NCBI GenBank assembly: GCA_049322255.1
Contig: JBMORE010000133.1
Coordinates: 1-64,000 of the forward strand
From: Myxococcota bacterium
GTDB taxonomy: Bacteria > Myxococcota > Myxococcia > Myxococcales > Myxococcaceae
Direction of reading: 5' to 3'
Length of the DNA: 64,000 nucleotides
Position 1 is the first letter of the stretch; each line of letters starts with the position of its first letter. A program made the position numbers and the translations under genes. The notes under the pieces are model-generated. The model searched no databases. It saw nothing but the letters and a program-made list of their open reading frames with translations, and was not told where the DNA came from. Below are positions 3,266-40,886 of the stretch, in pieces.

Positions 3266-3297
3266 CCCTCACCCTGCCCTCTCCCACAGGGAGAGGG
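3266..3297 (+). repeat. BoxC/REP-like palindromic element, copy 1
   Basis: CCCTCACCCTGCCCTCTCCC-ACA-GGGAGAGGG lies between convergent genes. Confidence 0.85.
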
Positions 3298-18119: not shown

Positions 18120-18153
18120 CCCTCACCCTTGCCTTCTCCCATGGGGAGAGGGG
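18120..18153 (+). repeat. BoxC/REP-like element, copy 3
   Basis: CCCTCACCCTTGCCTTCTCCCATGGGGAGAGGGG between convergent genes. Confidence 0.85.
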
Positions 18154-19427: not shown

Positions 19428-19450
19428 GCCCTCTCCCAGGGGGAGAGGGG
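19428..19450 (+). repeat. BoxC/REP-like element, partial copy 4
   Basis: GCCCTCTCCCAGGGGGAGAGGGG (hairpin half only) between the groEL stop and the terminator. Confidence 0.7.
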
Positions 19451-28083: not shown

Positions 28084-29682
28084 ATGCCGAGGCGACTTCT
28101 CATGATGGCTCTGGCGGCGACGGCAGCGGGCTGCGAGGCCACGGCAGAATTCCAGCTTCCCGAAAATGGTGGGCCGGTGACGCTGCCGGCCGACGCGCTG
28201 GCGGGGGTTTCCGGAGCGCGGCGGCTGACCCGCACCGAGTACGACGCCACCTTGCGCGACCTGCTCGGCGATGCAACCAACTCGGGCTTCGCGCTGTTAC
28301 CGGCCGACTCCAACGACCCGTTCGACAACGACTACAAGACGCAAATCGCCTCGGCGATGCTGGTGGAGGCGGTGGAGCGGCTGGCGATCGACGCGGTTCG
28401 CCGCGCGCTTGCCGACCCAGGCAAAAGAGACGCGCTGGTGCGGTGCGCGCCTTCCGGGCCCGGTGACGCGGAGTGTTTGCGCCGCTTCGTCACTGACTTC
28501 GGGCGTAAGGCACTGCGACGGCCGCTCTCCGAAGAGGAGGTGACGGGCTACCTGGCGTTGCAGAGCTACGCGGTGGAAGCCAACGACTTCTACGTGGGTG
28601 TCGAGCTGGTGATGCGCGCCTTGCTCCAGCAGGTCGAGTTCCTCTACCGGGTGGAGCTGGGTACCCCCGTGGCGGGCAAGGCGGGCACCTTCCGCCTCTC
28701 ACCGTTCGAGCTGGCCACCCGCATGTCTTACTTCCTGTGGGGGAGCACCCCGCCGGAGTGGCTCCTTGATTTGGCGCAGAACGACGAGCTCCGTTCCACC
28801 GCGCACATTCGCGCCGCCGCCCAGCGCCTCGTCGACGACCCGCGGGCGACCGAGCGCGTCGACCGCTTTCACGCATTGTGGCTGGGCTATCACCAGCTGC
28901 CGCACCCGGTCGACCTGACCAACGCCATGCGGGCCGAGAGCGGAGCGCTGGTGAAGCGGGTGGTGTTCGACGACCGGGGCGACTACCTCGACCTGTTTCG
29001 TGCCACCGAAACGTACGCCACCGACGCCTTGGCCAACCATTACGGCTTGCCCGGCGCAGGCGGCTCCACCGCTCAATGGGTGAGCTACGGAGCCTCCGGG
29101 CGCAAAGGGCTCTTGTCGCACGGCTCGGTGCTCTCGGCGGGCGCCAAGTTCAACGACACCTCGCCCACGCAGCGGGGCATCTTCGTGCGCACCCGCTTGC
29201 TCTGTCAGGAAGTGCCGCCCCCGCCCCCCAACGTCGACGTCGATCAGATTCCCCAAAGCCCCACCTCGAACTGCAAGAAAGACCGTTACTCGGCGCACGC
29301 CAGTGTGGGCAACTGCAAGAGCTGTCACCAGAACATCGATCCCGTCGGCTTCGGCCTGGAGAGCTACGACCGCGCCGGTCGCTACCGCACCCACGACGAC
29401 AACGAGCCCGCGTGCCTCATCGACGGCCAGGGGGTGATCTCCGAGCTGGGAGGGTTCAACGGGCCGGCGGGGCTGTCTGACCTGCTCGTCGCCTCGGGCG
29501 GGCTCGACCGCTGCGTGGTGACCCAGGTCTACCGCTTCGCCATGGGCCGCCGCGAAGCTCCCGCCGATGCCGCGCTGGTGGAGAAGCTCACCGAGAGTTT
29601 CCGTCAGAAGAACCGCCCCTTCGCCGAGCTGCTGCTCGACTTCGTGGCGGACGAAACCTTCGCCTTCCGGATGGAAGAATAG
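28084..29682 (+). CDS. DUF1587/1595/1592/1588/1585 lipoprotein with CxxCH
   Basis: Motifs RRLTRTEYD, ELATRMSYFLWGSTP, TSPTQRG and CKSCH..IDPVGFGLE, with lipobox AAGC. Confidence 0.9.
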   Translation: MPRRLLMMALAATAAGCEATAEFQLPENGGPVTLPADALAGVSGARRLTRTEYDATLRDLLGDATNSGFALLPADSNDPFDNDYKTQIASAMLVEAVERLAIDAVRRALADPGKRDALVRCAPSGPGDAECLRRFVTDFGRKALRRPLSEEEVTGYLALQSYAVEANDFYVGVELVMRALLQQVEFLYRVELGTPVAGKAGTFRLSPFELATRMSYFLWGSTPPEWLLDLAQNDELRSTAHIRAAAQRLVDDPRATERVDRFHALWLGYHQLPHPVDLTNAMRAESGALVKRVVFDDRGDYLDLFRATETYATDALANHYGLPGAGGSTAQWVSYGASGRKGLLSHGSVLSAGAKFNDTSPTQRGIFVRTRLLCQEVPPPPPNVDVDQIPQSPTSNCKKDRYSAHASVGNCKSCHQNIDPVGFGLESYDRAGRYRTHDDNEPACLIDGQGVISELGGFNGPAGLSDLLVASGGLDRCVVTQVYRFAMGRREAPADAALVEKLTESFRQKNRPFAELLLDFVADETFAFRMEE

Positions 29683-29692
29683 GAGCCATGCG

Positions 29693-31174
29693 ATGAAGAA
29701 GACGCTCAAGCTCCATCGCCGCGCGGTGCTCAAGGGCCTGGGAGGAGTGAGCATCGGCCTGCCCTTGCTCGAGGTGATGCTCGACTCCCAAAAAGCTTTC
29801 GGCCAGAGCGCCACGCCACCCAAACGCTACATGGTGTTCTTCGACGGTCAGTCGCTGGGGGCCGACCGAGACACCCGCCACAACGACCTGGTGCCCAACA
29901 CCATCGGTCGCGACTACGACCTCAAGAGCGCCACCGCGCCCCTGGCCAACCACAACAACATCAAGAACGAGGTGAGCATCGTCTCGGGTCTGAGCATCCC
30001 GGTGGCAAACGGCGGCCCGGTGCCCGCCGCGGGCCGGCGCGACGACTTTCACGTTTCATCGCTCTCCCCGCTGCTGTCGGGAGTGCGCTCGCCGAGCAAC
30101 ACGGCCTCGGCGGGAGTGACCTCCGACCAGGTGGTCGCGGGCTTCCTCGCCGGCAACACCCCGCACCGCTCGCTCGTCTACCGCGTGCAGGCCGACTGGT
30201 ACCTCTCGGTGTCGGCGCCCTACGGGCGGGACATGATTTCCTACCGGGCGAACACCTCCGGCGGAAACCCGGTGGCCATCCCTCCGCAGACCAGCCCTCA
30301 GCAGGCCTTCAACGCCCTGTTTGGCGGCTTCACCCCTCCGGGTGTCGACCCGGCGGCGGCCGCGCGCTTTGACTTCGACCAGCGCTCTCGGCGCAGCATT
30401 CTCGACTTGGTGCGCGGAAACACCGAGCGGCTTATTCCCAAGCTGGGAGCGGCCGACCGGGTGCGCCTGTCCTTGCACCTGGAGGAGATTCGCGAGCTGG
30501 AGCGGCGGGTGGCGGCGATTCCTCCTCCGCAGACCAGCACCTGCGTCGTTCCCCCCAGCCCGACCGACCCCGCGCTGGGTGGAAACCAGGGCGTCGACGG
30601 CTCCGGCAACACCACCTACGGACAGAACCTGGGCTACAGCGGGGAGGAAGAGCGCGCTCGTGCCTTCGCCGACCTCATCCACATGGCCTTCGCCTGCGAC
30701 CTGTCGCGCGTGGCCTCGCTGCAGATGACCATGTTCCAATCGCACCTGAACATGTACCAGCTCACCGGCCAGGCCACCGACTGCCACGAGCTGGGCCACG
30801 GTGGGGCGCCCGGGGGTACCCTGGCCATCTCCCGCGGCATCGCCTGGCACATGAAGCACTTCGCCTACTTGGTGTCGCGCTTTCGGGACACCCCCGAAGG
30901 CAACGGCTCGATGCTCGACAACATGGCCATCGTCTACCTCTTCGAGGGCGGGCACGGCTTCGACTCGGGCGCGGGGGCGCAGAACAGCTCGCACTCCACC
31001 GAGAACATGGCGTGCCTGGTCGCCGGACGCGCCGGGGGCCTTCAGCCGGGCCAGCACGTGGTGGCCAACGGCATGCACCCCGCCCAGGTGCTCGTCACCG
31101 CGATGAAGGCGGTGGGTTACACCGCGAACACGTTGGGCGAGGTGACCGGCGACATTCCCGCCTTGAGGGCGTAG
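29693..31174 (+). CDS. DUF1552 domain protein (Tat substrate)
   Basis: Twin-arginine motif HRRAVLKG, IGLPLLEVM, AFACDLSRVA and EGNGSMLDN. Confidence 0.9.
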   Translation: MKKTLKLHRRAVLKGLGGVSIGLPLLEVMLDSQKAFGQSATPPKRYMVFFDGQSLGADRDTRHNDLVPNTIGRDYDLKSATAPLANHNNIKNEVSIVSGLSIPVANGGPVPAAGRRDDFHVSSLSPLLSGVRSPSNTASAGVTSDQVVAGFLAGNTPHRSLVYRVQADWYLSVSAPYGRDMISYRANTSGGNPVAIPPQTSPQQAFNALFGGFTPPGVDPAAAARFDFDQRSRRSILDLVRGNTERLIPKLGAADRVRLSLHLEEIRELERRVAAIPPPQTSTCVVPPSPTDPALGGNQGVDGSGNTTYGQNLGYSGEEERARAFADLIHMAFACDLSRVASLQMTMFQSHLNMYQLTGQATDCHELGHGGAPGGTLAISRGIAWHMKHFAYLVSRFRDTPEGNGSMLDNMAIVYLFEGGHGFDSGAGAQNSSHSTENMACLVAGRAGGLQPGQHVVANGMHPAQVLVTAMKAVGYTANTLGEVTGDIPALRA

Positions 31175-31178
31175 CGCG

Positions 31179-32450
31179 CTACTTTCCAAAGCGGCGATAG
31201 CTGTGCACCACGCCCTTGAGCGCCGCGGGGCTGCCGGTACGCAGATATCCCGACAGCACCAGGCCGTCTTCGGTCGTTTTCACGCGCTCCCAGACGATGC
31301 TGGGGTTGGAGGCGCTGGAGGGCAGGACCACCAAGCCCCAGGTCCCTCCGTCGAAGTAGGCGGCCCGGCTTCCCTGGTGCCCGACCGCCCACACCTCGCT
31401 GACCGAGCGCGCGCTCACCGAACGCAGCCCGAAGCCGGCGTCGAAGACCTGCTCGAAGCCGCCGTCAGGGCGTAGCTGGGCGACCATCCCGCTGTGAGAG
31501 ACGACCCACGCCTCGTTGCCGACACCGTCGATCTCCATCCACCCGTCGCCAAAGCTGTCGACGTCGACAGGCCCGGAGACCGGAGCACCGTTGGACCGGT
31601 AGATTTTCCCCAGCGCGTCGTTGCCGTTGTAGTCGCCCCCCACGACGTACTCCACCCCCGAGGCGGTGCGGTGCGCGTCGTTGAGGTACACCGAAGGGCC
31701 AAGCTGCGGGTCGGCGAGCTCGACCAGGCCGCCGGTGGGCGTCCACCGGCAGATGGTGAAGGGGTAGCCGACGAACAGCACGTCGGTCGGCGAGAACACC
31801 TCCAGCCCGTAAAACCAGGAGTTGCTCTGGCCGCCGTCCGGCTTCTGGCAGTCGCCGAATCCCGCGACGGAGAAGTCTTGCACGTAGTGCCGAATGTAGC
31901 CGCGCGTGCCGGTCCAACGGTCGGCCAGCGTGCCCTTCGAAATTTTCGCCTCGTAGGCGTCGCCGAATTCGAAGGAGCGATTGACCTCGGTGAGCCCGCC
32001 GTCGACCTTGGTGTACTCGAAGAGGTCGTAGTCTGCGATCGCGGAGAGCGGGTCGATGTCGTAGCTGGTGTACACCTGGTAGCGGTCCACCGACTCGGCG
32101 ACGATGCCGGGCGCCACCGACCAGTAAGAGTACATGTACGAGGCGCGCGACAGCTCCACCGCGTCGACCGGGCAGAGGAAAGACGGACAGCCGGCATCGG
32201 ACGTTCCCGCGTCGGTGGCGCCTCCGTCTTCTCGAGGGCCGGCATCTTCAACCGAGCCGGCGTCGTTGCCCAAGTCTCCGCCGTCGCTTTTGCTGTCGCC
32301 TCCGCCGTCTCCACCTCCGCCGTCCGCCAGCGCGTCACAGCGCCCGCCACTGCAGTAGCCCTGGTACGCAGCGTCGAAATCGAAGCAGGCGGACAGCGCC
32401 ACGGCGCAAAGGCACAACACCGTGATGCGCGTCGTGACGACTCTGTTCAC
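31179..32450 (-). CDS. Hypothetical lipoprotein with a D/G-rich linker and a beta-propeller-like C-terminal region
   Basis: Lipobox LSAC, DGG/DAG linker and VWAVG-type repeats. Confidence 0.7.
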   Translation of the reverse strand: MNRVVTTRITVLCLCAVALSACFDFDAAYQGYCSGGRCDALADGGGGDGGGDSKSDGGDLGNDAGSVEDAGPREDGGATDAGTSDAGCPSFLCPVDAVELSRASYMYSYWSVAPGIVAESVDRYQVYTSYDIDPLSAIADYDLFEYTKVDGGLTEVNRSFEFGDAYEAKISKGTLADRWTGTRGYIRHYVQDFSVAGFGDCQKPDGGQSNSWFYGLEVFSPTDVLFVGYPFTICRWTPTGGLVELADPQLGPSVYLNDAHRTASGVEYVVGGDYNGNDALGKIYRSNGAPVSGPVDVDSFGDGWMEIDGVGNEAWVVSHSGMVAQLRPDGGFEQVFDAGFGLRSVSARSVSEVWAVGHQGSRAAYFDGGTWGLVVLPSSASNPSIVWERVKTTEDGLVLSGYLRTGSPAALKGVVHSYRRFGK

Positions 32451-32466
32451 GGAACGGACGCTAACC

Positions 32467-33369
32467 TCAAAGACCTGCCACCGTCACGCAATCGGAAGCC
32501 AGGCCGACCTCCACCCCACCGGGCCAGCTCTGATAAGCGTGGGTGACGTTGAACGCTGTGTCCCAGCACTCGACGGCGGTGGCCCCGGCGAAGTTGCCCT
32601 GGAGCACTTCGACGTCGGCGCGGCCCGCTCCCGAGGAGAGCCACTTGCTGGTGACGAGCATCTCCAGCACGTCGGGGTGGGTGCCCTTGCCCTGAAAGCG
32701 AATCGACCCGGAGCGGTCGGCGTTCTCGCGGTAGGTGTAGCCGACCGAGCTCAGGTTCTGTTCGTTGCCCGAGGCGAAGGTGAAGAGCATCTCCACGCGA
32801 AGGGGGTTCAAATCGGTGAGGTAATCAATCTCCAGGGTGTCGAGGGCGGCGCTCTGTGGGTCGTCGATGCCGATCGATCGCCCCGCCCGGAAAGAGAGCT
32901 CGATGTGCCCGCGGCCCTTGGTGAGCTGGGCGGCCGACCGGAGGTTGCCGGTGAGCAGCGCGGTCCACGCGCTTTGTGTCTGCGGTCTGGCCTCGATGAC
33001 GAAGAGAAAGGTCTCCTCGTCGATCTTGGTCATCACGATACGTGCCTCGACGCCGGGGTGCTTTTCGTCGGGGAAGGGGCCCCAGGTGCGCCGGTTCGCC
33101 TCCCGCCGGGTGGGAGGTACCTGGCGGACGAGCTCCGCCAGCCCGAGAATGCGGTCGAGCAGCCCGTTGAAGTCGTTCGAGGCTTTGCGGGTGTCGGTGT
33201 ACGCCTTGGACGGCTCACCTCCCAGGCCGCTCTGGCTGCCGTCCACCGGCAGCTTGGAGGCGAGGTCGGCCTTCGCCGGCAGGGCGTTGACGAACTCGAT
33301 GTCCTGGTTCGACCAGTTGCCCCCGCAGGCGGCGAGGAGGACGGCGCAGACGAAAGGGACGCGGCGCAT
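32467..33369 (-). CDS. Lipoprotein, paralogue of 36433-37410
   Basis: Lipobox LAAC. Shared motifs WGP, GAGRADV and ECWD. Confidence 0.8.
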   Translation of the reverse strand: MRRVPFVCAVLLAACGGNWSNQDIEFVNALPAKADLASKLPVDGSQSGLGGEPSKAYTDTRKASNDFNGLLDRILGLAELVRQVPPTRREANRRTWGPFPDEKHPGVEARIVMTKIDEETFLFVIEARPQTQSAWTALLTGNLRSAAQLTKGRGHIELSFRAGRSIGIDDPQSAALDTLEIDYLTDLNPLRVEMLFTFASGNEQNLSSVGYTYRENADRSGSIRFQGKGTHPDVLEMLVTSKWLSSGAGRADVEVLQGNFAGATAVECWDTAFNVTHAYQSWPGGVEVGLASDCVTVAGL

Positions 33370-33378
33370 GGAAGACTC

Positions 33379-35025
33379 CTAAAGCTCGTAGCTCAAGAGC
33401 GTGCCGAGCTCGAGGTAACCGAAGTTCCTCGTCTCGTCGATGTTGTACAGGAGATAGTGCAAGCGGGCGCGGCCGGTGAGGCCGAAGCGCTGGGTGAGGC
33501 GCCACTTCACCCCGGCCAAAAGGCCGGGGCTCAAGGTGTAGAAGACTTGGCGGGGGAGGCGAGCGCCAGGGAAGTCGCGCGACATCAAGTGAATACCCAG
33601 GCGGCCGCCGACGAAGGGCACCCAGGAGCCCTCCGGCCACTCGGCAAGGAGCGAGCCGCCCACCGAGAGTTGCGAGTAGCGGTAGGGCAACTCCTGCACG
33701 CTACCCACCGAAAGCCGCCCGCTACTCCCCCCCAGGAGCACGTCCCCCCCCAGCGACCAGCCGCGGCCGAAGAAGTTGTGTGACAGCGCCTCCAGGCCGA
33801 CGAGCGTCGCCGAGGGGAACAGCCCGCCGCTGCTCGACGGCGCATCGAAGACCGCCTGGAAGGTGCCGGTGACGCCCAAGCTCAAGTGCTGCGCGTAGAG
33901 AAGGCTGCGCTCCGGCCCTTTCATCGGGTCGTCGGCGAAGGCCACGTCTCGTAACGAGCCCTCGTCGACTCGCACCACCTTCCCGGCGCCGACCTCCACC
34001 TTGCCCACCCGCAGCCGGTCGGCGAGCCGGCGCTTGAGGAAGTAAGTGCCGGGGCTGAGCGCGATGCGTCGCTCGGCGCCCGCGGCCTTCACCACCTCGG
34101 CGCTCATGAAGCCCCGCTCGTCGACCACGTAGTAGGAGCCCGCGGGGGCCTCGGCGGGGAAGAGGAGCCCCTCGCGGCGCTCGGCCACGTCGGTGAGCAC
34201 CACGTCTCCGTTGCCTGCCAGGTCGTAGCTGAAGGTGGGGTGCTGCGCGCCCGCGGCGCTCTCGGCGGTGTCCGCCACGGTGCGGTCGTAGGCGTAGGCG
34301 TACGCTTCGGAGAGGCTCACCCGGCCATCGCCCGAACGGTCGGCGTCGCCGAGCATCGCGCTCGCCAGGTGGTGGGAAAAGTAACTGCCCCCGATGAGGT
34401 CGGACTCCTGCGAGTCCTCGTCGGCGGCGCTGGAAGTGAGAATGACCAGACCCTTGGCGGCGCGGGTGGCGTCCGACTCCACCTCGAACGCCGGTGCACG
34501 CCGTACCCCTTTGGTGCGGGTGAGACCGCCCGAGCGGCACGCATCGAACACGGCGATGCGAACGTCCGCCGGCGCTTGTGCCAGCCGGCCCTTGAGCGCT
34601 TCGAAGGGCAGCTTGCTCCTTCCCAACCGCAAGGCGCCGTCCTTGGCGTGGCCGGAGTAGTAGACGAGGAGCGCCGTGCGTTCACCGCGGCGGGCGGCGT
34701 CGCGCGCCTTTCGCTCCAGCTCCCCCAGCGCGAGGAGAAAGTCCTCCGCGGCGGCGTTGAGCAGGAGCGAGGCATCTTCGGGGCGCACCCCACCCAGCCG
34801 GGTGAGGATGTCGTGAATCTTCCGCGCGTCGTCACGAGCGTAGAGCAGGGGGCGGGTCCCTTCGCCGCCGTCGTCGTTGCCGGCGACCAGGGCGAAGCGG
34901 TGCAGGGGTCCCTGCGCGTGGGCGGGCGCACAGAGGAGCACCAGCCCAACGGCGAGAAAGAGGCCCCCTCTCTCTCTGGGAGAGGGTCGGGGTGAGGGGC
35001 AAATCTTCAAACTACCGCCCCTCAC
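33379..35025 (-). CDS. Exported caspase-family (peptidase C14) protein with a probable C-terminal beta-barrel
   Basis: RFALVAGN, His in YYSGHA, Cys in FDACRSG and QHPTF. Signal peptide ...LLCAPAHA, and an amphipathic beta-strand C-terminus ending SYEL. The exact start is uncertain because it lies in repeats. Confidence 0.9.
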   Translation of the reverse strand: MRGGSLKICPSPRPSPRERGGLFLAVGLVLLCAPAHAQGPLHRFALVAGNDDGGEGTRPLLYARDDARKIHDILTRLGGVRPEDASLLLNAAAEDFLLALGELERKARDAARRGERTALLVYYSGHAKDGALRLGRSKLPFEALKGRLAQAPADVRIAVFDACRSGGLTRTKGVRRAPAFEVESDATRAAKGLVILTSSAADEDSQESDLIGGSYFSHHLASAMLGDADRSGDGRVSLSEAYAYAYDRTVADTAESAAGAQHPTFSYDLAGNGDVVLTDVAERREGLLFPAEAPAGSYYVVDERGFMSAEVVKAAGAERRIALSPGTYFLKRRLADRLRVGKVEVGAGKVVRVDEGSLRDVAFADDPMKGPERSLLYAQHLSLGVTGTFQAVFDAPSSSGGLFPSATLVGLEALSHNFFGRGWSLGGDVLLGGSSGRLSVGSVQELPYRYSQLSVGGSLLAEWPEGSWVPFVGGRLGIHLMSRDFPGARLPRQVFYTLSPGLLAGVKWRLTQRFGLTGRARLHYLLYNIDETRNFGYLELGTLLSYEL

Positions 35026-35052
35026 CCTTTCCCTCTCCCAGAGGGAGAGGGG
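34965..35052. repeat. Inverted pair of BoxC/REP-like elements (copies 5 and 6)
   Basis: Copies at 34965-34999 (minus orientation) and 35018-35052 (plus orientation), at the anti-sigma/caspase junction. Confidence 0.85.
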
Positions 35053-35815
35053 ATTTGAGGAACATGCGGTGGAACTGCTCTCCCGGGACGTCGATGCGCT
35101 TCACCTTCGACAGGTCGCCTTTTGCCTGCTCGAAGGCCTTCCGGGTCGCGCGCAAGACCGCCTCGACCTCCAGTGGCTCGTCGCTCAAGACGACGATGAG
35201 CTGCTCGCTGCCTGGGCCGACGAATTCGAAGCTGCCCGGAAGGTACTGGGTGCCGCCGCCCAGGGCAGGAAGGCTTGGGCCCGCCTCGGGGTAGACGGGG
35301 CTGACCTCGCCGCGATCGTCGATCGCCACGGCCAAGACGAAGCGCCGCTCCCCGGCCTGGTACCCGATGCGCACCCGCTCCCCGGGCCCAAGCAGCTCCG
35401 CTGTCCCGGCGGCGGTGACCCGGGTGGGCGCACCTTCGGGCCCGCCCACGACCACGTCGATGCCCGCGCCGCCCTTGGTGCGGTTGGGCCTAAGCTGGTT
35501 GTTGTCGATGAGCGACTGCGCGGCCACGGTGAGCACCGCCGCGGCCGCCAGCCCCATCACCGGGTAGAGCCACCGCGCACGGGGGCCCTCCAGCCCGCGG
35601 GGAGCGCGCTGGGCCCGCTCGACGCCGGCGGCGAAGCGCTCGAAGGAAATCTCCTTCTCGAAGCGGCGCTGCTCGTCCTCGATGGCCTTGAGCTTGGAAC
35701 GGCAGACGCCGCACTCGTGGGCATGCGCCTGCGCGTGTGTGGCGTCGTCTCCCCCAAGCTCTCCGGCGAACAGGCGCCGCAGCTCGAGCTCTCCCAGGTG
35801 GGTTTGTGGTGTCAT
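35012..35815 (-). CDS. ZAS anti-sigma factor with a TM helix and a DUF4384-like periplasmic domain
   Basis: HAHECGVC matches HxxxCxxC. TM segment WLYPVMGLAAAAVLTVAA, then LGPGERVRIGY..AIDDRGEVSPVYP. The ATG overlaps the sigma stop. Confidence 0.85.
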   Translation of the reverse strand: MTPQTHLGELELRRLFAGELGGDDATHAQAHAHECGVCRSKLKAIEDEQRRFEKEISFERFAAGVERAQRAPRGLEGPRARWLYPVMGLAAAAVLTVAAQSLIDNNQLRPNRTKGGAGIDVVVGGPEGAPTRVTAAGTAELLGPGERVRIGYQAGERRFVLAVAIDDRGEVSPVYPEAGPSLPALGGGTQYLPGSFEFVGPGSEQLIVVLSDEPLEVEAVLRATRKAFEQAKGDLSKVKRIDVPGEQFHRMFLKSPLPLGEGKGEGR

Positions 35816-36339
35816 GGCAACAACTCCTGTCCGCTGGCGGCGGCGAACGCCAACAGTCGTTTGCGAATGGTCGGCACGCTGCGCTGCAGGAGTTGGGCGA
35901 CCTCCTCCAACGTCATCTCGTCGAGGTGGTAGTGAATCACCGCCGCTTGTGTTTCGCGGTCGAAGCGGGAGAGCAGCTTGCGCACCGCGTCTCGGGTCTC
36001 CAGCACCGCGGGACCGCCGTGGCTCGAAGGCATGCTCTTCTCCTGAGCCTCGAAGCGGTCTTTCCACCCGGCCTTCTGTGAGCGCAAAAGGTTCAGGCAG
36101 TGGTGGGTGGCGATTTTGGTCAACCAGGTGAGTGGCGAGGCCTCGGCGCGAAAGGCGCTCCAGTGGGTGAGCGCCTTGGCGAAGACGTCTTGCATCGCGT
36201 CCTCCGCCGCCGTCGGGTCCTTGAGCAGGTAGCAGCAACGGCCGTACACGCTGCCTCCGTACTTTCCGTACAGCTCGCGCAGGCTGGCGCGGACATCGGG
36301 TCTACCCCCTTCGAGGACCTCCAGCGCGGGGTGGCTCAT
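35812..36339 (-). CDS. ECF RNA polymerase sigma factor
   Basis: Region 2 AEDAMQDVF..TWLTKIATHHCLN. Region 4 MTLEEVAQLLQRSVPTIRKRL. Confidence 0.93.
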   Translation of the reverse strand: MSHPALEVLEGGRPDVRASLRELYGKYGGSVYGRCCYLLKDPTAAEDAMQDVFAKALTHWSAFRAEASPLTWLTKIATHHCLNLLRSQKAGWKDRFEAQEKSMPSSHGGPAVLETRDAVRKLLSRFDRETQAAVIHYHLDEMTLEEVAQLLQRSVPTIRKRLLAFAAASGQELLP

Positions 36340-36344
36340 CGGCT

Positions 36345-36400
36345 ACGCGCTCCCCTCACCCAAACCCTCTCCCAGCGGGAGAGGGGTAAAGGGAGCGCGT
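36345..36400 (+). repeat. BoxC/REP-like element, copy 7, with extended flanking arms
   Basis: Core at 36352-36386, enclosed by the inverted repeat ACGCGCTCCC / GGGAGCGCGT. Confidence 0.85.
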
Positions 36401-36432
36401 GGGCCAAAAGGGTGCATCGTCTCAATCGTCTC

Positions 36433-37410
36433 TTACAGGGACAGGGAAGAGTACTCCGCGGTGGCGAAGGCGCAGACGCTCTCCACCCCGTAGTTGAGGC
36501 TGGGGGCGAAGGAGGCGTTGACATAGCGGCTGGCGAAGTTCTCGTCCCAGCACTCGCTGGCGGTGGCGCCGCCCGAGGGAATGTCGCCACCCACCGCCTT
36601 CACGTCGGCGCGGCCCGCCCCCTGCTGGGTCCAGCGGCTGCGAATGGTAGCCACCTCGAGCGCCGGTTTGGCCGGGTCGTTGTCGAGGTTCTTGATGATC
36701 TTGAAGTCGAAGGAGCCGCCCGCGGCAGGGGTGGAGAGGTAGCGGTAGCTGGCGTCGACCCGGCTGCCGGTCTCCTCGTCCTTCACCTGCTTGAACTCCA
36801 CGTCGATGCGAATGTCCGCGCTGGCCGAGAGGCGCGAGTAGGTGAACTCCGCCGAGCCGATCTCCTTGCCGTGCTCCGGCAGGGTGGCCGCGGCGTCCCA
36901 GTCGAGCAGGAAGGTGCCGTTGCCGTAGTTTTCCTGCGGGTTCCCCGCGGCGTCGGCGGCGACTTTGTGCGCGCCCGAGAGAATGACCACGTACGCATCA
37001 TCACCCGCGTTCTTGCCCTTCCCCTCCAGGGTGTAGCTGTAGTCGTTCTCGGCGTTCTTGATCACCGTGAACTTGTAGGTGTTGGGCGAAAGCGCGTCGG
37101 TGTGCGGGCCCCACACCGCGGTGTTTTCGCGCACCGAGGTCGGGGGGTTGTTGACGATCGCCTTCACCAGCCCCAGCACCGCCACCGTGCCGGCGTTGAT
37201 CACCACCGTGACGCCCCGGGTGAGGGTGTAGAAGCCGGCGCGCTCTCCCTCCAGCCCGTCCTGTCGCGACGAGAGTGCCTGTCCGCTCGATGAGGGAACG
37301 TTCACCGCCACGTCCTTCGCCTGGGGAACTCCCTTGCGGAAGGTGTCGGCCCTGTCCACACCGCAGGCGGTCATCAGCACCGCGGTGGCTACTGCGAGAA
37401 TGCGCGTCAT
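36433..37410 (-). CDS. Lipoprotein, first gene of the ECF/caspase operon
   Basis: RBS AAGGAGA, MTRILAVATAVLMTAC lipobox, and motifs WGP, GAGRADV and ECWD. Confidence 0.85.
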   Translation of the reverse strand: MTRILAVATAVLMTACGVDRADTFRKGVPQAKDVAVNVPSSSGQALSSRQDGLEGERAGFYTLTRGVTVVINAGTVAVLGLVKAIVNNPPTSVRENTAVWGPHTDALSPNTYKFTVIKNAENDYSYTLEGKGKNAGDDAYVVILSGAHKVAADAAGNPQENYGNGTFLLDWDAAATLPEHGKEIGSAEFTYSRLSASADIRIDVEFKQVKDEETGSRVDASYRYLSTPAAGGSFDFKIIKNLDNDPAKPALEVATIRSRWTQQGAGRADVKAVGGDIPSGGATASECWDENFASRYVNASFAPSLNYGVESVCAFATAEYSSLSL

Positions 37411-37536
37411 GGTCTCTCCTTGAAGAAACGGCTTTGCCGGCCTCGTGCCGAAGGTTTCGCTGCAATGGACCCAGCGGCGGCCCAAAGTTGAAAGGGCGGG
37501 GAAAACCCGAGTCAAGCCCAGCGTTTGGAGATACTT

Positions 37537-39675
37537 CTACCGCCCCAACGTCCAGCGCTGGGCGTTGAGGCCGTCGGAGAGGCCCACCTCGAAGTGGCCT
37601 CCTTCGGGCAACCCGGCCGTCGGCAGCTCCAGCCGCCCGCCCTGCGCGTAGAGGGTGAGGGTGGTGCGGAATTCTCCCACATGGGCCACCATCGCATAGG
37701 GGAGCACCGCCGCATCCCACTGCACGCGAAGGCGGTCGCCCAGATGGCGCACCGAAGGCGAAGCCGCCGAGCGAAGCGGCACCGCCTCACGGCGCAAGAG
37801 CCGCCGGCCCGCACGGTGGATTTCCAGGGCGCGCACGTCCCCCACATCCGGCACCACCAAGCTGAAGAAAGCCTCGTCGACGTCGGCGACGCGCTGGGTG
37901 GCGAAGCCGTGCTCGGTGACACCGTGCGCGGTGAACAGGCGCAGCACGTACGGCCCTTCCTCGAAGGGGAACGGCGCCCCGGTGAAGCGTTGCAAAGGCT
38001 TCAAGGAGACGCCTTTGGCGTCGATGCGGCCGGCGATGAGCAACTGGGGCTGCGAGCCGCCGATGACATAGGCCTGCGGCGGCCGCTGCTCCAGGCGGGC
38101 CTGCGCGCCCTGATAGCTGTAGTCGGACACCCAGACGGGGTCGCAGTACGACATCACGTCATAGACGGAGCGGCTGGGGTCGATGAGCTGCTGGGTGGCG
38201 GGGTTGAAGCCCCAGGAGCCGATGCGGGCCCCGGGGTAAGGGTAGGCCGGGTCGCCCTGGGTGTTGCAGGGGGCATGGTCGCGGTCGAAGTTGTGACCCA
38301 GCTCGTGAACCATGGTGTCGATGGAGTCGTCACGGCCGGTGGCGACGGGAAAGCCGAGCATGCCGATGCCGGCGACACCGCTGAAGAAATTCACCTGCAC
38401 GAAGCCGTAGTAGTGGCGGCGGCTGCCGTCGGCCTGGCGCACCGAGGCGAGCTCGGTCAACAAGTCGCTCCAGCCCTGCGCGGAGAAGGCGGTGATTTGC
38501 CCCGAGAAGGTATACGGGGCGCGGGTGGTGGACTGGGTGCTGTGCAGCGGCCAGAACTGCCACAGCCGCGGGGCGAAGTTGGAGGGCACCCGGCCGGTGA
38601 GCCCCTGCTGAACGACGGGCACCGCGGTCAGATGGAGCACCGTGGCCGCGCCCACCAGCACCGGCTGGGTGCGCACGTTGTTCGCCTCGTCGGTCTCCGC
38701 CAGCGCGTTGGCCGGGTCGACGGTGACGGTGACGCTCGCGTTGGGTACCAGCCAAGCGTCGGGCACCTGGGCGGCGAAGGCCTGGGTCATGTCCTCGGTG
38801 GTGGGAAAGCTCGCCGGCCCGGCGAGGTCGAGCACGCCCAGGGAGGTCGTACCCAGGGTGGCCTCGGCGCGCACCGTGGTGACCGGCACGTTCGGCTGGT
38901 CGGAGACCACCAGCACGCGCAGCTGCGCCGGCTTGCCGGGGATGAGCTTCAAGTCCGGCTTCACCACCGTCTGTGCCCAATCGACGCGGGCCAGCCGCAG
39001 GTCGACTCGGAATTGCGGCTCGGCCGTCACCACCGTGGCCTTCTGCGCGGTGCCCCCGAAGGCGTCGCGCACCACCAGCGACACGTCGTAGGTGCCCACG
39101 GTGTCGAAAGTCACCTGGGCAGGGGTGCTCGAGGAGCAGCCATTCACCGTCAGGTCGATTTTTCCATCGGTGTTGGTGTCCACCAGGCAGGTGAGGGGGT
39201 GGCTCTCCGGGTCGGAGATCGACCAACGCAAGGTGGTGGTGAAGGGAACCTGCCCGCGCTCCGGCTCGGCGACGAACACCGCGATGGCCGGAGCCTCGTT
39301 GTGGGCCAACACGGTGACGGTGGTGGCCTTCTCGCGGTAGGCGCCGTCGCTGTTGGTGGCGGTCAGCTTGACGGGAAAGGTGCCCGCGCTGCCGAAGGTG
39401 TGCGTCTGCAAAGAGAAGAGGCCACAGTTGGGCAGCGTGTACTCGGCCGCCCCGTCGCCGTTCACGTCCAGCGAGCAGGTCACCGGCTTGTTGGCGGCCT
39501 CACGCACAAAAAAGGTGCAGGTGGAGAGCATCGGTACCGCGCCCGCCGCGGGCGTGCAGGAGAAGGCCTCGATGCGCGGGCCCGCGGGGTCGTCGTCGGC
39601 GAGAGGGCGCCCCGAGCCCGAGCCGCAACCCCACGAAAGGAGGGTGAGCAAGACGACGGGCAGGTTGAACCGCAT
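37537..39675 (-). CDS. Lipoprotein zinc metalloprotease (M66-like) with PKD-like and CARDB-like domains
   Basis: HELGHNFDRDHAPC (HExxHxxxxxH), Met-turn DVMSYC, two PKD-like repeats and VDPANALAETDEANN. Confidence 0.82.
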   Translation of the reverse strand: MRFNLPVVLLTLLSWGCGSGSGRPLADDDPAGPRIEAFSCTPAAGAVPMLSTCTFFVREAANKPVTCSLDVNGDGAAEYTLPNCGLFSLQTHTFGSAGTFPVKLTATNSDGAYREKATTVTVLAHNEAPAIAVFVAEPERGQVPFTTTLRWSISDPESHPLTCLVDTNTDGKIDLTVNGCSSSTPAQVTFDTVGTYDVSLVVRDAFGGTAQKATVVTAEPQFRVDLRLARVDWAQTVVKPDLKLIPGKPAQLRVLVVSDQPNVPVTTVRAEATLGTTSLGVLDLAGPASFPTTEDMTQAFAAQVPDAWLVPNASVTVTVDPANALAETDEANNVRTQPVLVGAATVLHLTAVPVVQQGLTGRVPSNFAPRLWQFWPLHSTQSTTRAPYTFSGQITAFSAQGWSDLLTELASVRQADGSRRHYYGFVQVNFFSGVAGIGMLGFPVATGRDDSIDTMVHELGHNFDRDHAPCNTQGDPAYPYPGARIGSWGFNPATQQLIDPSRSVYDVMSYCDPVWVSDYSYQGAQARLEQRPPQAYVIGGSQPQLLIAGRIDAKGVSLKPLQRFTGAPFPFEEGPYVLRLFTAHGVTEHGFATQRVADVDEAFFSLVVPDVGDVRALEIHRAGRRLLRREAVPLRSAASPSVRHLGDRLRVQWDAAVLPYAMVAHVGEFRTTLTLYAQGGRLELPTAGLPEGGHFEVGLSDGLNAQRWTLGR

Positions 39676-39760: not shown

Positions 39761-40795
39761 CTACTGCTGGGTGTACCGCTTGGCCAGCCGAACCAAATCG
39801 GGCATCGGCACCGGCTTGGTGAGGTAGTCGGTCGCGCCGGAGTGGTCGGCCATCTGGTGAAGCTTTTCGTCTTGGACCGCCGAGAGCAGGACGATGGGCA
39901 GGGCGATGGTGGCCGCGTCGCTGCGCAAGCGGGAGCAGACCTCCAGCCCGTCCAACCCCGGCAGTAAGACATCGATGAACGCCACGTCGGGGCGCAGCCG
40001 AAGCACGAGCTCGAGCGCCTCGTCGCCTCGGGAGGCCTGCTGCACCTCGAAGCCGTGCTTCTGCAGCTCTCCCGACACCGCGAGGAGCAGGCTGGGGTCG
40101 GCGGCGGCCACCACCGCTCGAATGCGGCGAGAAGGGGCTTGATTGCGACGGCGCAGCTCCTCCTCCTCGGCCCGACGCAACCCTTCGATGCAGTCGGCGA
40201 GCCTTTCTGCGGTCTCTTCGCGAAGCTCGACGAACTGGAGGGCGGCCATGGCGAGCTCGTTGCGGGCGCGCAGCACCTCGGCCACCAAAGGGAGCTGCTC
40301 CCCGCTGGGGAGCATGAGCTCCAGCTCGAGCCGCTGTCCCACTTTCAGCTGCGCCGGGCAGGTCAAGAGCATGCCCGAGATCGACAGGTTCTTCGTCACG
40401 CACCGAGCAGCGAGAAAGTCGTGGAGGCGGACCGGGAGCGCGCAGTCGATGCGAAGGTGGCGTCGGGCGGCACGCTCCTGGGCGTCTTTGGCGTGGGCCA
40501 GCCCGATGAGCGCGCGGCACCGTTCGAGCTCTCCTTTGGCGAAAGAGACGAAGACTCCCGCCGCGAAGCGGTCGCTCTTTTCCCGCCGGCCCAACACCTC
40601 GGCGCGCAGCTGAATCTGCACCGCCACGTCCGGGGAGGTCACCTCGATCTCCACCTGTGACCCAAGGTCGAGCTGCGCGTCGCTGGGAATGAAGAAGCGC
40701 TCTCCTCCCGTTCGCACCAAGTTTGCCCAGAGCTGAAATTTGTCAGTGAAATCCAGTCTTAACGTCTTTCTCATGCTCGCCCTTTGGAGCTTCAT
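39761..40795 (-). CDS. PilZ-like / PilZ / REC signalling protein
   Basis: RRHLR (RxxxR) and NLSISG PilZ motifs. C-terminal REC (FIDVLLPGLDG, YLTKP). The start is 40795 or 40774. Confidence 0.85.
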   Translation of the reverse strand: MKLQRASMRKTLRLDFTDKFQLWANLVRTGGERFFIPSDAQLDLGSQVEIEVTSPDVAVQIQLRAEVLGRREKSDRFAAGVFVSFAKGELERCRALIGLAHAKDAQERAARRHLRIDCALPVRLHDFLAARCVTKNLSISGMLLTCPAQLKVGQRLELELMLPSGEQLPLVAEVLRARNELAMAALQFVELREETAERLADCIEGLRRAEEEELRRRNQAPSRRIRAVVAAADPSLLLAVSGELQKHGFEVQQASRGDEALELVLRLRPDVAFIDVLLPGLDGLEVCSRLRSDAATIALPIVLLSAVQDEKLHQMADHSGATDYLTKPVPMPDLVRLAKRYTQQ

Positions 40796-40886
40796 TTTAC
40801 CACGGCCCGCTGGAGGGTCTGTTCGGCCTCCCGCTCGCCACACGGGCAGGCTGGTTTCATCGCACTGCCATTCCTAGCTTTGGTTG

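Follow-up and report, generated by a model that had tools for sequence, protein, structure and literature searches.

The function of bacterial caspase homologues is a long-standing question. Proposals have mostly centred on cell death, and the substrates known so far are few. Asplund-Samuelsson et al. reported that four of the five metacaspases of Myxococcus xanthus DK1622 are located in sigma-factor operons, and that sigma/metacaspase operons also occur in Anaeromyxobacter, Haliangium, Sorangium, Ralstonia and Fibrobacter (Asplund-Samuelsson et al., 2012; PMC3501461). The passages of that paper that deal with these operons present the co-occurrence and a role in cell death only, and name no anti-sigma factor, DUF4384 domain, barrel, motifs, lipoproteins or site-1 role. 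DUF4384 itself has been described in the anti-sigma factors of ECF25, a group of extracytoplasmic function (ECF) sigma factors that includes Deltaproteobacteria, Spirochaetes and Fibrobacteres (Casas-Pastor et al., 2021; PMC7826278), and some C-terminal domains of Csx30, a target of the craspase complex, are also DUF4384 (bioRxiv 10.1101/2022.08.17.504292). Here we analyzed a five-gene cassette of the same operon kind as those of 2012, located at positions 32467-37410 of a 64,000-nucleotide stretch of DNA (the window) from a Myxococcota bacterium of the family Myxococcaceae (GenBank assembly GCA_049322255.1, contig JBMORE010000133.1, positions 1 to 64,000). It encodes an ECF sigma factor, a zinc-binding anti-sigma factor and an exported caspase homologue between two lipoproteins. 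We give about an even chance to the reading that this caspase serves as site-1 protease of the anti-sigma factor and cleaves it at a Lys-Gly motif adjacent to the inner membrane on the periplasmic side. A sequence-only reading of the window had known of no experimental description of this arrangement, and our literature search likewise found none of a sigma/anti-sigma/caspase arrangement, although the operon type has been in print since 2012 (PMC3501461).

The five-gene cassette was confirmed, with all genes on the minus strand and a transcription order of lipoprotein A, sigma, anti-sigma, caspase and lipoprotein B, as follows (aa, amino acids; ZAS, zinc-binding anti-sigma; Ig, immunoglobulin).

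36433..37410, minus strand: lipoprotein A, 325 aa, the first cassette gene; begins MTRILAVATAVLMTAC, lipobox LMTAC
35812..36339, minus strand: ECF (group 4) sigma factor, 175 aa, with Sigma70_r2, r4_2 and TIGR02937 matches
35012..35815, minus strand: anti-sigma factor, 267 aa, with ZAS helices 9-70, membrane helix 81-106, a linker, a DUF4384-like beta-sandwich 118-254 and a 12-residue tail
33379..35010, minus strand: exported caspase homologue, 543 aa, with signal peptide, C14 domain 36-262, Ig-like domain 271-356 and barrel 375-542
32467..33369, minus strand: lipoprotein B, 300 aa, the last conserved gene; lipobox LAAC

Because the region has a G+C content of 66-71%, every frame is open, and the real genes were therefore picked by their third-position G+C (0.84-0.91 overall and 0.84-0.88 for the five cassette genes). 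The stop codon of the sigma gene and the start codon of the anti-sigma gene overlap as ATGA, 9 nucleotides (nt) separate the caspase stop from the start of lipoprotein B, and the caspase starts with TTG at 35010 or, alternatively, with a GTG that extends it to 35025. The coordinates and direct reading of the sequence bear out the five co-oriented, closely spaced genes and the ATGA overlap of the sequence-only reading. Its anti-sigma factor with HxxxCxxC, one membrane helix and a periplasmic domain corresponds to HAHECGVC at residues 31-38, helix 81-106 and the beta-sandwich 118-254, and the SGH/DAC dyad, signal peptide, DADRSGDGRVS loop and beta-strand C-terminus that it had assigned to the caspase are all present.

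The operon is real and strongly conserved. In a first survey, 41 related genomes were searched with the caspase, which gave matches in 37 of them and full-length matches at E<=1e-100 in 24 of the 40 other genomes. All 20 loci fetched from this survey contain sigma, anti-sigma and caspase, with lipoprotein B downstream in 19 and the lipoprotein A gene upstream in 17. A second survey covered 80 named records seeded from the caspase, including Corallococcus, Myxococcus, Archangium, Cystobacter, Hyalangium, Pyxidicoccus and many metagenome-assembled genomes; it overlaps the 20 loci of the first, and its counts are limited to loci with enough flank. Here the anti-sigma gene was found upstream of the caspase in 70/70 loci, sigma in 69/69, lipoprotein A upstream of sigma in 61/65 and lipoprotein B downstream of the caspase in 72/72. 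All five genes are syntenic in 56/60 loci, and the arrangement is therefore not due to chance. Start/stop overlaps are common across the related loci, and the median spacing, with start codons picked by a heuristic, is -4 nt both between sigma and anti-sigma and between anti-sigma and caspase, 8 nt between caspase and lipoprotein B, and 24 nt between lipoprotein A and sigma. The conserved unit comprises these five genes, since neither the Peptidase_M66-like gene on one side (37537-39675) nor the gene of a third lipoprotein on the other (31179-32450) has a counterpart in 100 related loci.

The sigma protein matches Sigma70_r2 at 8.8e-15 (54.7 bits), r4_2 at 1.7e-6 (28 bits) and TIGR02937 with 67.8 bits against a cut-off of 42.9, and with regions 2 and 4 only in 175 aa it is an ECF (group 4) sigma factor. 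Its partner is a class I ZAS protein, as given by the overlap with the sigma gene, the single membrane helix and the following zinc motif.

35702..35725, minus strand: HxxxCxxC zinc motif HAHECGVC, anti-sigma residues 31-38; C35 and C38 invariant, H31 in at least 90% of 19 orthologues

The AlphaFold2 (AF2) model of the anti-sigma factor, with a predicted local distance difference test score (pLDDT) of 87, has helices in residues 9-70 and the membrane helix in 81-106; a linker modelled with low confidence then leads to a beta-sandwich, which includes one helix, in 118-254. zf-HC2 matches 8 of the 19 orthologues but not the window protein, and the N-terminal helices align to RslA at a Z of 6.0 only. 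DUF4384 is matched by 13/19 orthologues at E up to 0.1 (best 1.3e-5), and several homologues carry a precomputed PF14326 or the NCBI/JGI name DUF4384. By structure, the periplasmic domain gives generic Ig-like sandwich matches only (best Z 8.3), and no specific fold relative can be named. The family is large: a profile of the anti-sigma factor retrieved 11425 representatives at E<=1e-3 and 4282 (50% identity) at E<=1e-10 among 1.84 billion. Structural neighbours in the Atlas include clusters from Fibrobacterota, Spirochaetota and Acidobacteriota, DUF4384 clusters and one cluster of 'ActD-like protein', which matches the periplasmic domain with a template modelling score of 0.94 over residues 116-255 and has zf-HC2 in 22% of its members. 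Some close homologues (P0008, P0016, P0027) are named 'ACP synthase' by NCBI, a name to which the sequence lends no support and which looks like a propagated misannotation.

The caspase belongs to Peptidase C14 by family match, His-Cys dyad and caspase-haemoglobinase fold. Peptidase_C14 (PF00656) matches it at 1.4e-10 (41.7 bits against a cut-off of 21.4) and also matches 21/21 orthologues. Two features of the protease domain stand out.

34537..34650, minus strand: catalytic dyad His121 (SGH) and Cys158 (DAC), both invariant in 21/21 orthologues
34306..34341, minus strand: EF-hand-type loop DRSGDGRVSLSE, caspase residues 224-235, between helices 210-222 and 233-248

In a wider set the Cys motif DxCxSG is kept in 76/76 caspases and the His motif SGH[AS][KR] in 75/76. 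The AF2 model, built on the 21 orthologues (pLDDT 80), comprises an N-terminal helix (the signal peptide), the caspase domain at 36-262 with a disordered loop 161-186 right after Cys158, a beta-sandwich at 271-356, a short linker and eight long strands at 375-542. Foldseek matched the N-terminal part to caspase-3/-6/-7, Yca1 and the MALT1 caspase-Ig3 at ~1e-6 to 1e-7, and the C-terminal part to OmpA, NspA, Ail and OmpX at ~1e-8 to 1e-6. Pfam finds Opacity in 6/21 and OMP_b-brl in 3/21 orthologous barrels, and the C-terminal part is, as modelled, an OmpA/OmpX-like 8-stranded outer-membrane barrel. A relationship between the Ig-like domain of the caspase and the DUF4384-like domain of the anti-sigma factor was also considered and dropped (hhalign probability 0.2%).

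The window caspase has a hydrophobic, signal-like segment at its N-terminus, and its orthologues have classical signal peptides. Both ends of OmpA-type barrels face the periplasm, and the protease domain is for this reason predicted to be periplasmic. The sequence-only reading had interpreted the caspase as an envelope-anchored site-1 protease, an idea that would fall if the genes were not co-conserved across Myxococcota or if the caspase domain were cytoplasmic. The counts for anti-sigma, sigma and all five genes given above do not refute it, the domain is predicted to be periplasmic instead (a signal peptide, and C14 N-terminal to an OmpA-like barrel), and the interpretation appears plausible.

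As for specificity, the caspase family profile aligns to metacaspase-1 (7QP0 at 7.7e-6; 4F6O at 0.004), including the YSGH and D-x-C-x-SG motifs, and metacaspases and orthocaspases cleave after Arg or Lys (PMC6426788; PMC3501461). As for control, many members of the metacaspase/orthocaspase group depend on Ca2+. In the window caspase, the loop DADRSGDGRVSLSE at residues 222-235 contains the EF-hand-type segment, in which positions 1, 5, 8 and 12 are invariant in 21/21 orthologues and whose pattern is found in 73/76 caspases. An EF-hand has a 12-residue loop with ligands at positions 1, 3, 5 and 12, Gly at 6, a hydrophobic residue at 8 and a helix on either side. The window loop fits this pattern, while the window caspase has no Pfam EF-hand match; a paralogue on contig C28 of the same genome matches EF-hand_5 at 1.3e-4.

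A barrel with periplasmic domains that faces a one-helix anti-sigma factor also resembles cell-surface signalling, in which TonB-dependent transducers protect the anti-sigma factor from proteolysis (PMC11637429), and DUF4384 is an Ig-like sandwich, a common interaction fold. The caspase might in that case be a binding partner, docking on the DUF4384-like domain and shielding the anti-sigma factor from a general protease until a signal arrives, or being itself kept inactive by the anti-sigma domain. We regard this as quite unlikely; the dyad is intact in 76/76 caspases, which argues against a purely non-catalytic role.

The reading of the caspase as the site-1 protease draws on three Lys-Gly sites.

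35471..35482, minus strand: R-T-K-G, anti-sigma residues 112-115; candidate site-1 cleavage site
34507..34518, minus strand: R-T-K-G, caspase residues 165-168, in the loop 161-186 (pLDDT <50) after the catalytic Cys; candidate self-processing site
33916..33921, minus strand: K364-G365 in the DDPxKG linker between Ig-like domain and barrel of the caspase, invariant in 21/21 orthologues; candidate release site

The anti-sigma motif lies in the low-pLDDT linker, 6 residues past the membrane helix and 2 before the first strand. RxKG occurs once in 18 of the 19 anti-sigma orthologues, where shuffles expect 0.01-0.14 per protein, and exactly once in 21/21 caspases (0.05-0.19 expected). A wider set, from which 21 anti-sigma open reading frame (ORF) calls were left out as unreliable, has RxKG in 46/54 anti-sigma factors, the remaining 8 keeping [IV]-K-[GS]. 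The caspases of that set have it in 76/76, placed 7 residues past the Cys in 71 of the 76 measured. Its background in the other cassette proteins is 5/63 for lipoprotein A, 6/75 for lipoprotein B and 6/68 for sigma, and no [KR]-G is conserved in either lipoprotein. Eight [KR]G dipeptides are present in the window caspase; two of them, K167-G and K364-G, are the only ones shared by every one of the 21 orthologues, and K186-G at the end of the loop is kept in 17/21.

A shared motif does not by itself name the enzyme that reads it. Another periplasmic protease, trypsin-like or tail-specific, might cut all three K-G sites, in which case one upstream activator would have both the caspase and the anti-sigma factor as its substrates; Prc and proteases of the DegS type are known site-1 enzymes (PMC11506125). 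The cassette contains no conserved gene for such a protease, the M66-like gene beside it having 0 matches in 100 loci, and we consider this explanation very improbable. The position of the caspase motif also speaks for the caspase itself, as caspases typically process themselves in the loop that follows the catalytic Cys.

The combination of the three central genes is repeated within the genome. Two further sigma/anti-sigma/caspase modules were found, of which that on contig C127 (L052 5058-8140) consists of a sigma factor, a one-helix anti-sigma factor and a barrel-bearing caspase with overlapping ends. In that on contig C28 (L053 3580-6254), a sigma and a ZAS anti-sigma gene share an ATGA-type overlap and a caspase-like gene is divergent; in Pfam its product matches EF-hand_5, not Peptidase_C14. 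A fourth caspase, on contig C98, has TPR repeats and no sigma gene. Among related genomes, we sampled 40 paralogous caspases in search-list order, with contig-edge cases excluded, and 31 of them have an ECF sigma gene ~1 kb upstream on the same strand. The ORF in between encodes, in all 31 triads, a membrane helix with x-x-K-[GS] no more than 36 residues behind it, and x-x-K-G follows the Cys motif in 29 of the 31 caspases. At P3, the position three residues ahead of the Gly, caspase and anti-sigma partner tend to agree (R/R in 17 pairs, non-R/non-R in 8, mixed in 4; Fisher p 3e-4 with kinship ignored). In one relative (L031 925-1947 / L175, G020 contig C4), another paralogous caspase gene is located, in divergent orientation, just upstream of the lipoprotein A gene of the orthologous cassette.

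Upstream of the cassette we identified a promoter-like element. ECF promoters consist of two blocks separated by a spacer of ~16 nt, the second with GTC.

37465..37493, minus strand: bipartite ECF-type promoter-like motif TTTCAACTT-N12-GGGTCCAT, 54 nt upstream of the lipoprotein A start

The pattern TTTCTGTTT-N12-GTGTCCAT, which was composed after inspecting the sequences, occurs at fixed spacing upstream of lipoprotein A in 56/62 loci, and 4 of the 6 misses are near-matches. A position weight matrix (PWM) was trained on 43 other sites, with the window site left out, and a scan of the 4.8-Mb genome returned 5 sites at >=14 bits, among which the window site was joint top with 26.3 bits. In this regulon search the other four sites had no sensibly placed gene. 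We infer from these patterns that the motif is the operon's own ECF promoter, and the five-gene operon is probably self-activated. Between 32000 and 37800, a sigma-70 promoter scan gave 0 sites, and 6 terminator-like sites were found against 3.8 +/- 2.3 in shuffles, none of them at a gene end.

The promoter result is also one of several points that weigh against the caspase as site-1 protease. The operon's own site is the only well-placed copy of the promoter-like motif in the genome, which fits equally well with the caspase and the two lipoproteins being the output of the sigma factor and not its switch. The operon may then be its own regulon, a stress-induced envelope protease module for turnover of periplasmic proteins, for cell death or lysis in development or for defence, while some other protease or signal inactivates the anti-sigma factor. 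Conserved neighbours of ECF sigma genes are often their targets, and Myxococcus metacaspases in sigma operons have been proposed as autolytic enzymes (PMC3501461). Left unexplained by such an output role are the conserved RxKG outside the anti-sigma helix that matches the loop motif of the caspase, the association of DUF4384 with a protease, and the triad in 31/40 paralogues, each with its own anti-sigma factor. We consider this output reading, the main rival, unlikely; it is not mutually exclusive with a site-1 function.

The remaining points on that side concern the motifs, the domain and the geometry. A structural role could account for the conservation of the K-G sites, or a different protease could read them. 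The Lys/Arg cleavage preference of this caspase is itself inferred from homology, and on the window anti-sigma factor the DUF4384 match (PF14326) is sub-threshold, with 19.7 bits against a Pfam cut-off of 27 (E 8.9e-4). When P3 is placed on a tree of the caspase domain, there are only 3 independent contrasts, with a mean of 2.7 concordant and 0 opposite (sign test p 0.25), so that the Fisher p of 3e-4 overstates the agreement. Covariation of P3 between the partners was accordingly dropped as support, as it is not significant after kinship; its direction is right and there is no power. There is, moreover, a geometric problem, in that a protease tethered to the outer membrane must reach a site ~6 residues from the inner membrane and would need to be released at K364-G365; the candidate release site in the linker offers an answer to this objection.

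Taken together, the site-1 model is the most likely explanation because the linkage is tight and repeated, the matching motifs lie in flexible segments, the protease domain is predicted to lie in the periplasm, the metacaspase side of the family prefers Arg/Lys, and the genome encodes M50 site-2 proteases. In this model, the caspase would be made as a zymogen tethered to the outer membrane and hanging into the periplasm. The trigger would possibly be Ca2+, via the EF-hand loop, or a signal relayed by the two lipoproteins, upon which the caspase would cut itself twice: at R165-x-K167|G168, within the loop that follows the Cys, and at K364|G365, within the barrel linker, the latter cut freeing the protease. 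The freed caspase would then cut the anti-sigma factor at R112-x-K114|G115, removing the DUF4384-like domain and leaving a stub of ~8 residues. An RseP-type site-2 protease would cut the membrane helix and release the sigma factor, which would read the promoter of its own operon so that more of all five proteins are made. The fullest version of this picture is more tentative: a Ca2+-gated, self-freeing caspase whose cut of the anti-sigma factor starts a self-amplifying cascade across the envelope, employed again and again in myxobacteria and perhaps forming the ActD timing step of Myxococcus development, seems to us possible but somewhat doubtful. As regards that last step, Gronewold and Kaiser, in work of 2001 and 2002, are said to have described the act operon of M. 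xanthus, which contains ActD, as being driven by a sigma-54 activator and not by an ECF promoter.

The two lipoproteins of the cassette are paralogues of each other, with 26-27% identity and invariant Cys, WGP and ECWD positions in common. Neither has a Pfam or NCBIfam match, and their relatives in the Atlas are unnamed Myxococcota lipoproteins only.

The cassette also contains repeat elements. A palindrome resembling repetitive extragenic palindromic (REP) elements, CCCCTCACCC-N3-CCCTCTCCC-N3-GGGAGAGGG, is present in 6 copies in the window (3277-3297, 18132-18152, 19429-19449, 34966-34986, 35031-35051 and 36365-36385) and 220 in the genome; three of the six are inside the cassette, in two places.

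36350..36390, no strand assigned: REP-like element between lipoprotein A and the sigma gene, core 36365-36385
34960..35055, no strand assigned: two inverted REP-like elements at the anti-sigma/caspase junction, cores 34966-34986 and 35031-35051

The elements inserted at the junction encode the N-terminal ~20 residues of the caspase and the last 12 of the anti-sigma factor, whose orthologues end ...LKP. Some relatives (L032, L038, L039) have comparable inserts at this junction.

Directly upstream of the cassette promoter is a gene for a 712-aa lipoprotein with PKD domains and a Peptidase_M66-like HExxH region (37537-39675, minus strand). On the other side, a 423-aa lipoprotein with a Gly/Asp-rich linker and no family match (31179-32450, minus strand) begins 16 nt past lipoprotein B and may be co-transcribed. 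The region is flanked by a DUF1552 (HXXSHH) protein (29567-31174, plus strand) and a PilZ-receiver response regulator (39761-40843, minus strand), and no connection of either gene to the cassette was seen.

If true, the site-1 model would give DUF4384 a function, and the fuller cascade would give a bacterial C14 caspase its first defined signalling role. The signalling route across the envelope would also be widespread, because the anti-sigma type is large (the 4282 representatives above) and the triad recurs several times per genome. The cassette points to a single candidate substrate, to a single candidate bond (K114-G115) and, as read-out, to its own promoter, and cultivable carriers are available in Corallococcus, Archangium and Cystobacter.

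Among known systems, the RseA-DegS-RseP pathway of sigma-E, the textbook example of regulated intramembrane proteolysis, shares with our proposal a one-helix anti-sigma factor, a site-1 cut near the membrane and an M50 site-2 cut (PMC11506125). Its site-1 enzyme, however, is a serine protease of the inner membrane activated by the C-termini of outer-membrane proteins, whereas the enzyme proposed here is a cysteine protease anchored in the outer membrane and encoded in the same operon. Cell-surface signalling of the FecA-FecR-FecI type differs from the cassette, whose proteins contain no TonB-dependent receptor or FecR domain and whose barrel is 8-stranded. ECF25, whose anti-sigma factors contain DUF4384, may resemble it; no caspase is among the conserved neighbours listed for ECF25, and a count of the word 'caspase' gives 0 both for the main text and for the examined part of the supplement (PMC7826278).

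Closer in its protease is craspase (Cas7-11-Csx29), where a caspase-like protease cuts Csx30, an anti-sigma-like protein which is bound to the ECF sigma factor RpoE; unlike the cassette, craspase is cytoplasmic and RNA-guided, its protease is TPR-CHAT and not C14, and there is no membrane step (bioRxiv 10.1101/2022.08.17.504292). Nine proteins in or beside the cassette match no Cas7-11, Csx29, Csx30/Csx31 or CRISPR family and so give no sign of a type III-E craspase system. In DdvS-DdvA of M. xanthus, as in the cassette, an ECF sigma factor is paired with a zinc-binding one-helix anti-sigma factor, and a periplasmic His-Cys domain of the caspase family (CHAT) has been proposed, though not proven, to act at site 1 before RseP (PMC11506125). 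DdvA differs in the fusion of its TPR-CHAT part (~900 residues) to the anti-sigma factor, in its incomplete active site and in its control of a CBASS/CRISPR island (PMC11506125). The cassette has instead a separate C14 protein with an outer-membrane barrel, and its anti-sigma factor, at 267 aa, carries a small Ig-like domain only and no fused TPR-CHAT. We contend that the cassette is a variant of known things, namely regulated anti-sigma proteolysis and caspase-like proteases tied to anti-sigma factors, and that what it adds to the plain sigma/anti-sigma/caspase triad is a pair of flanking paralogous lipoproteins under the same promoter.

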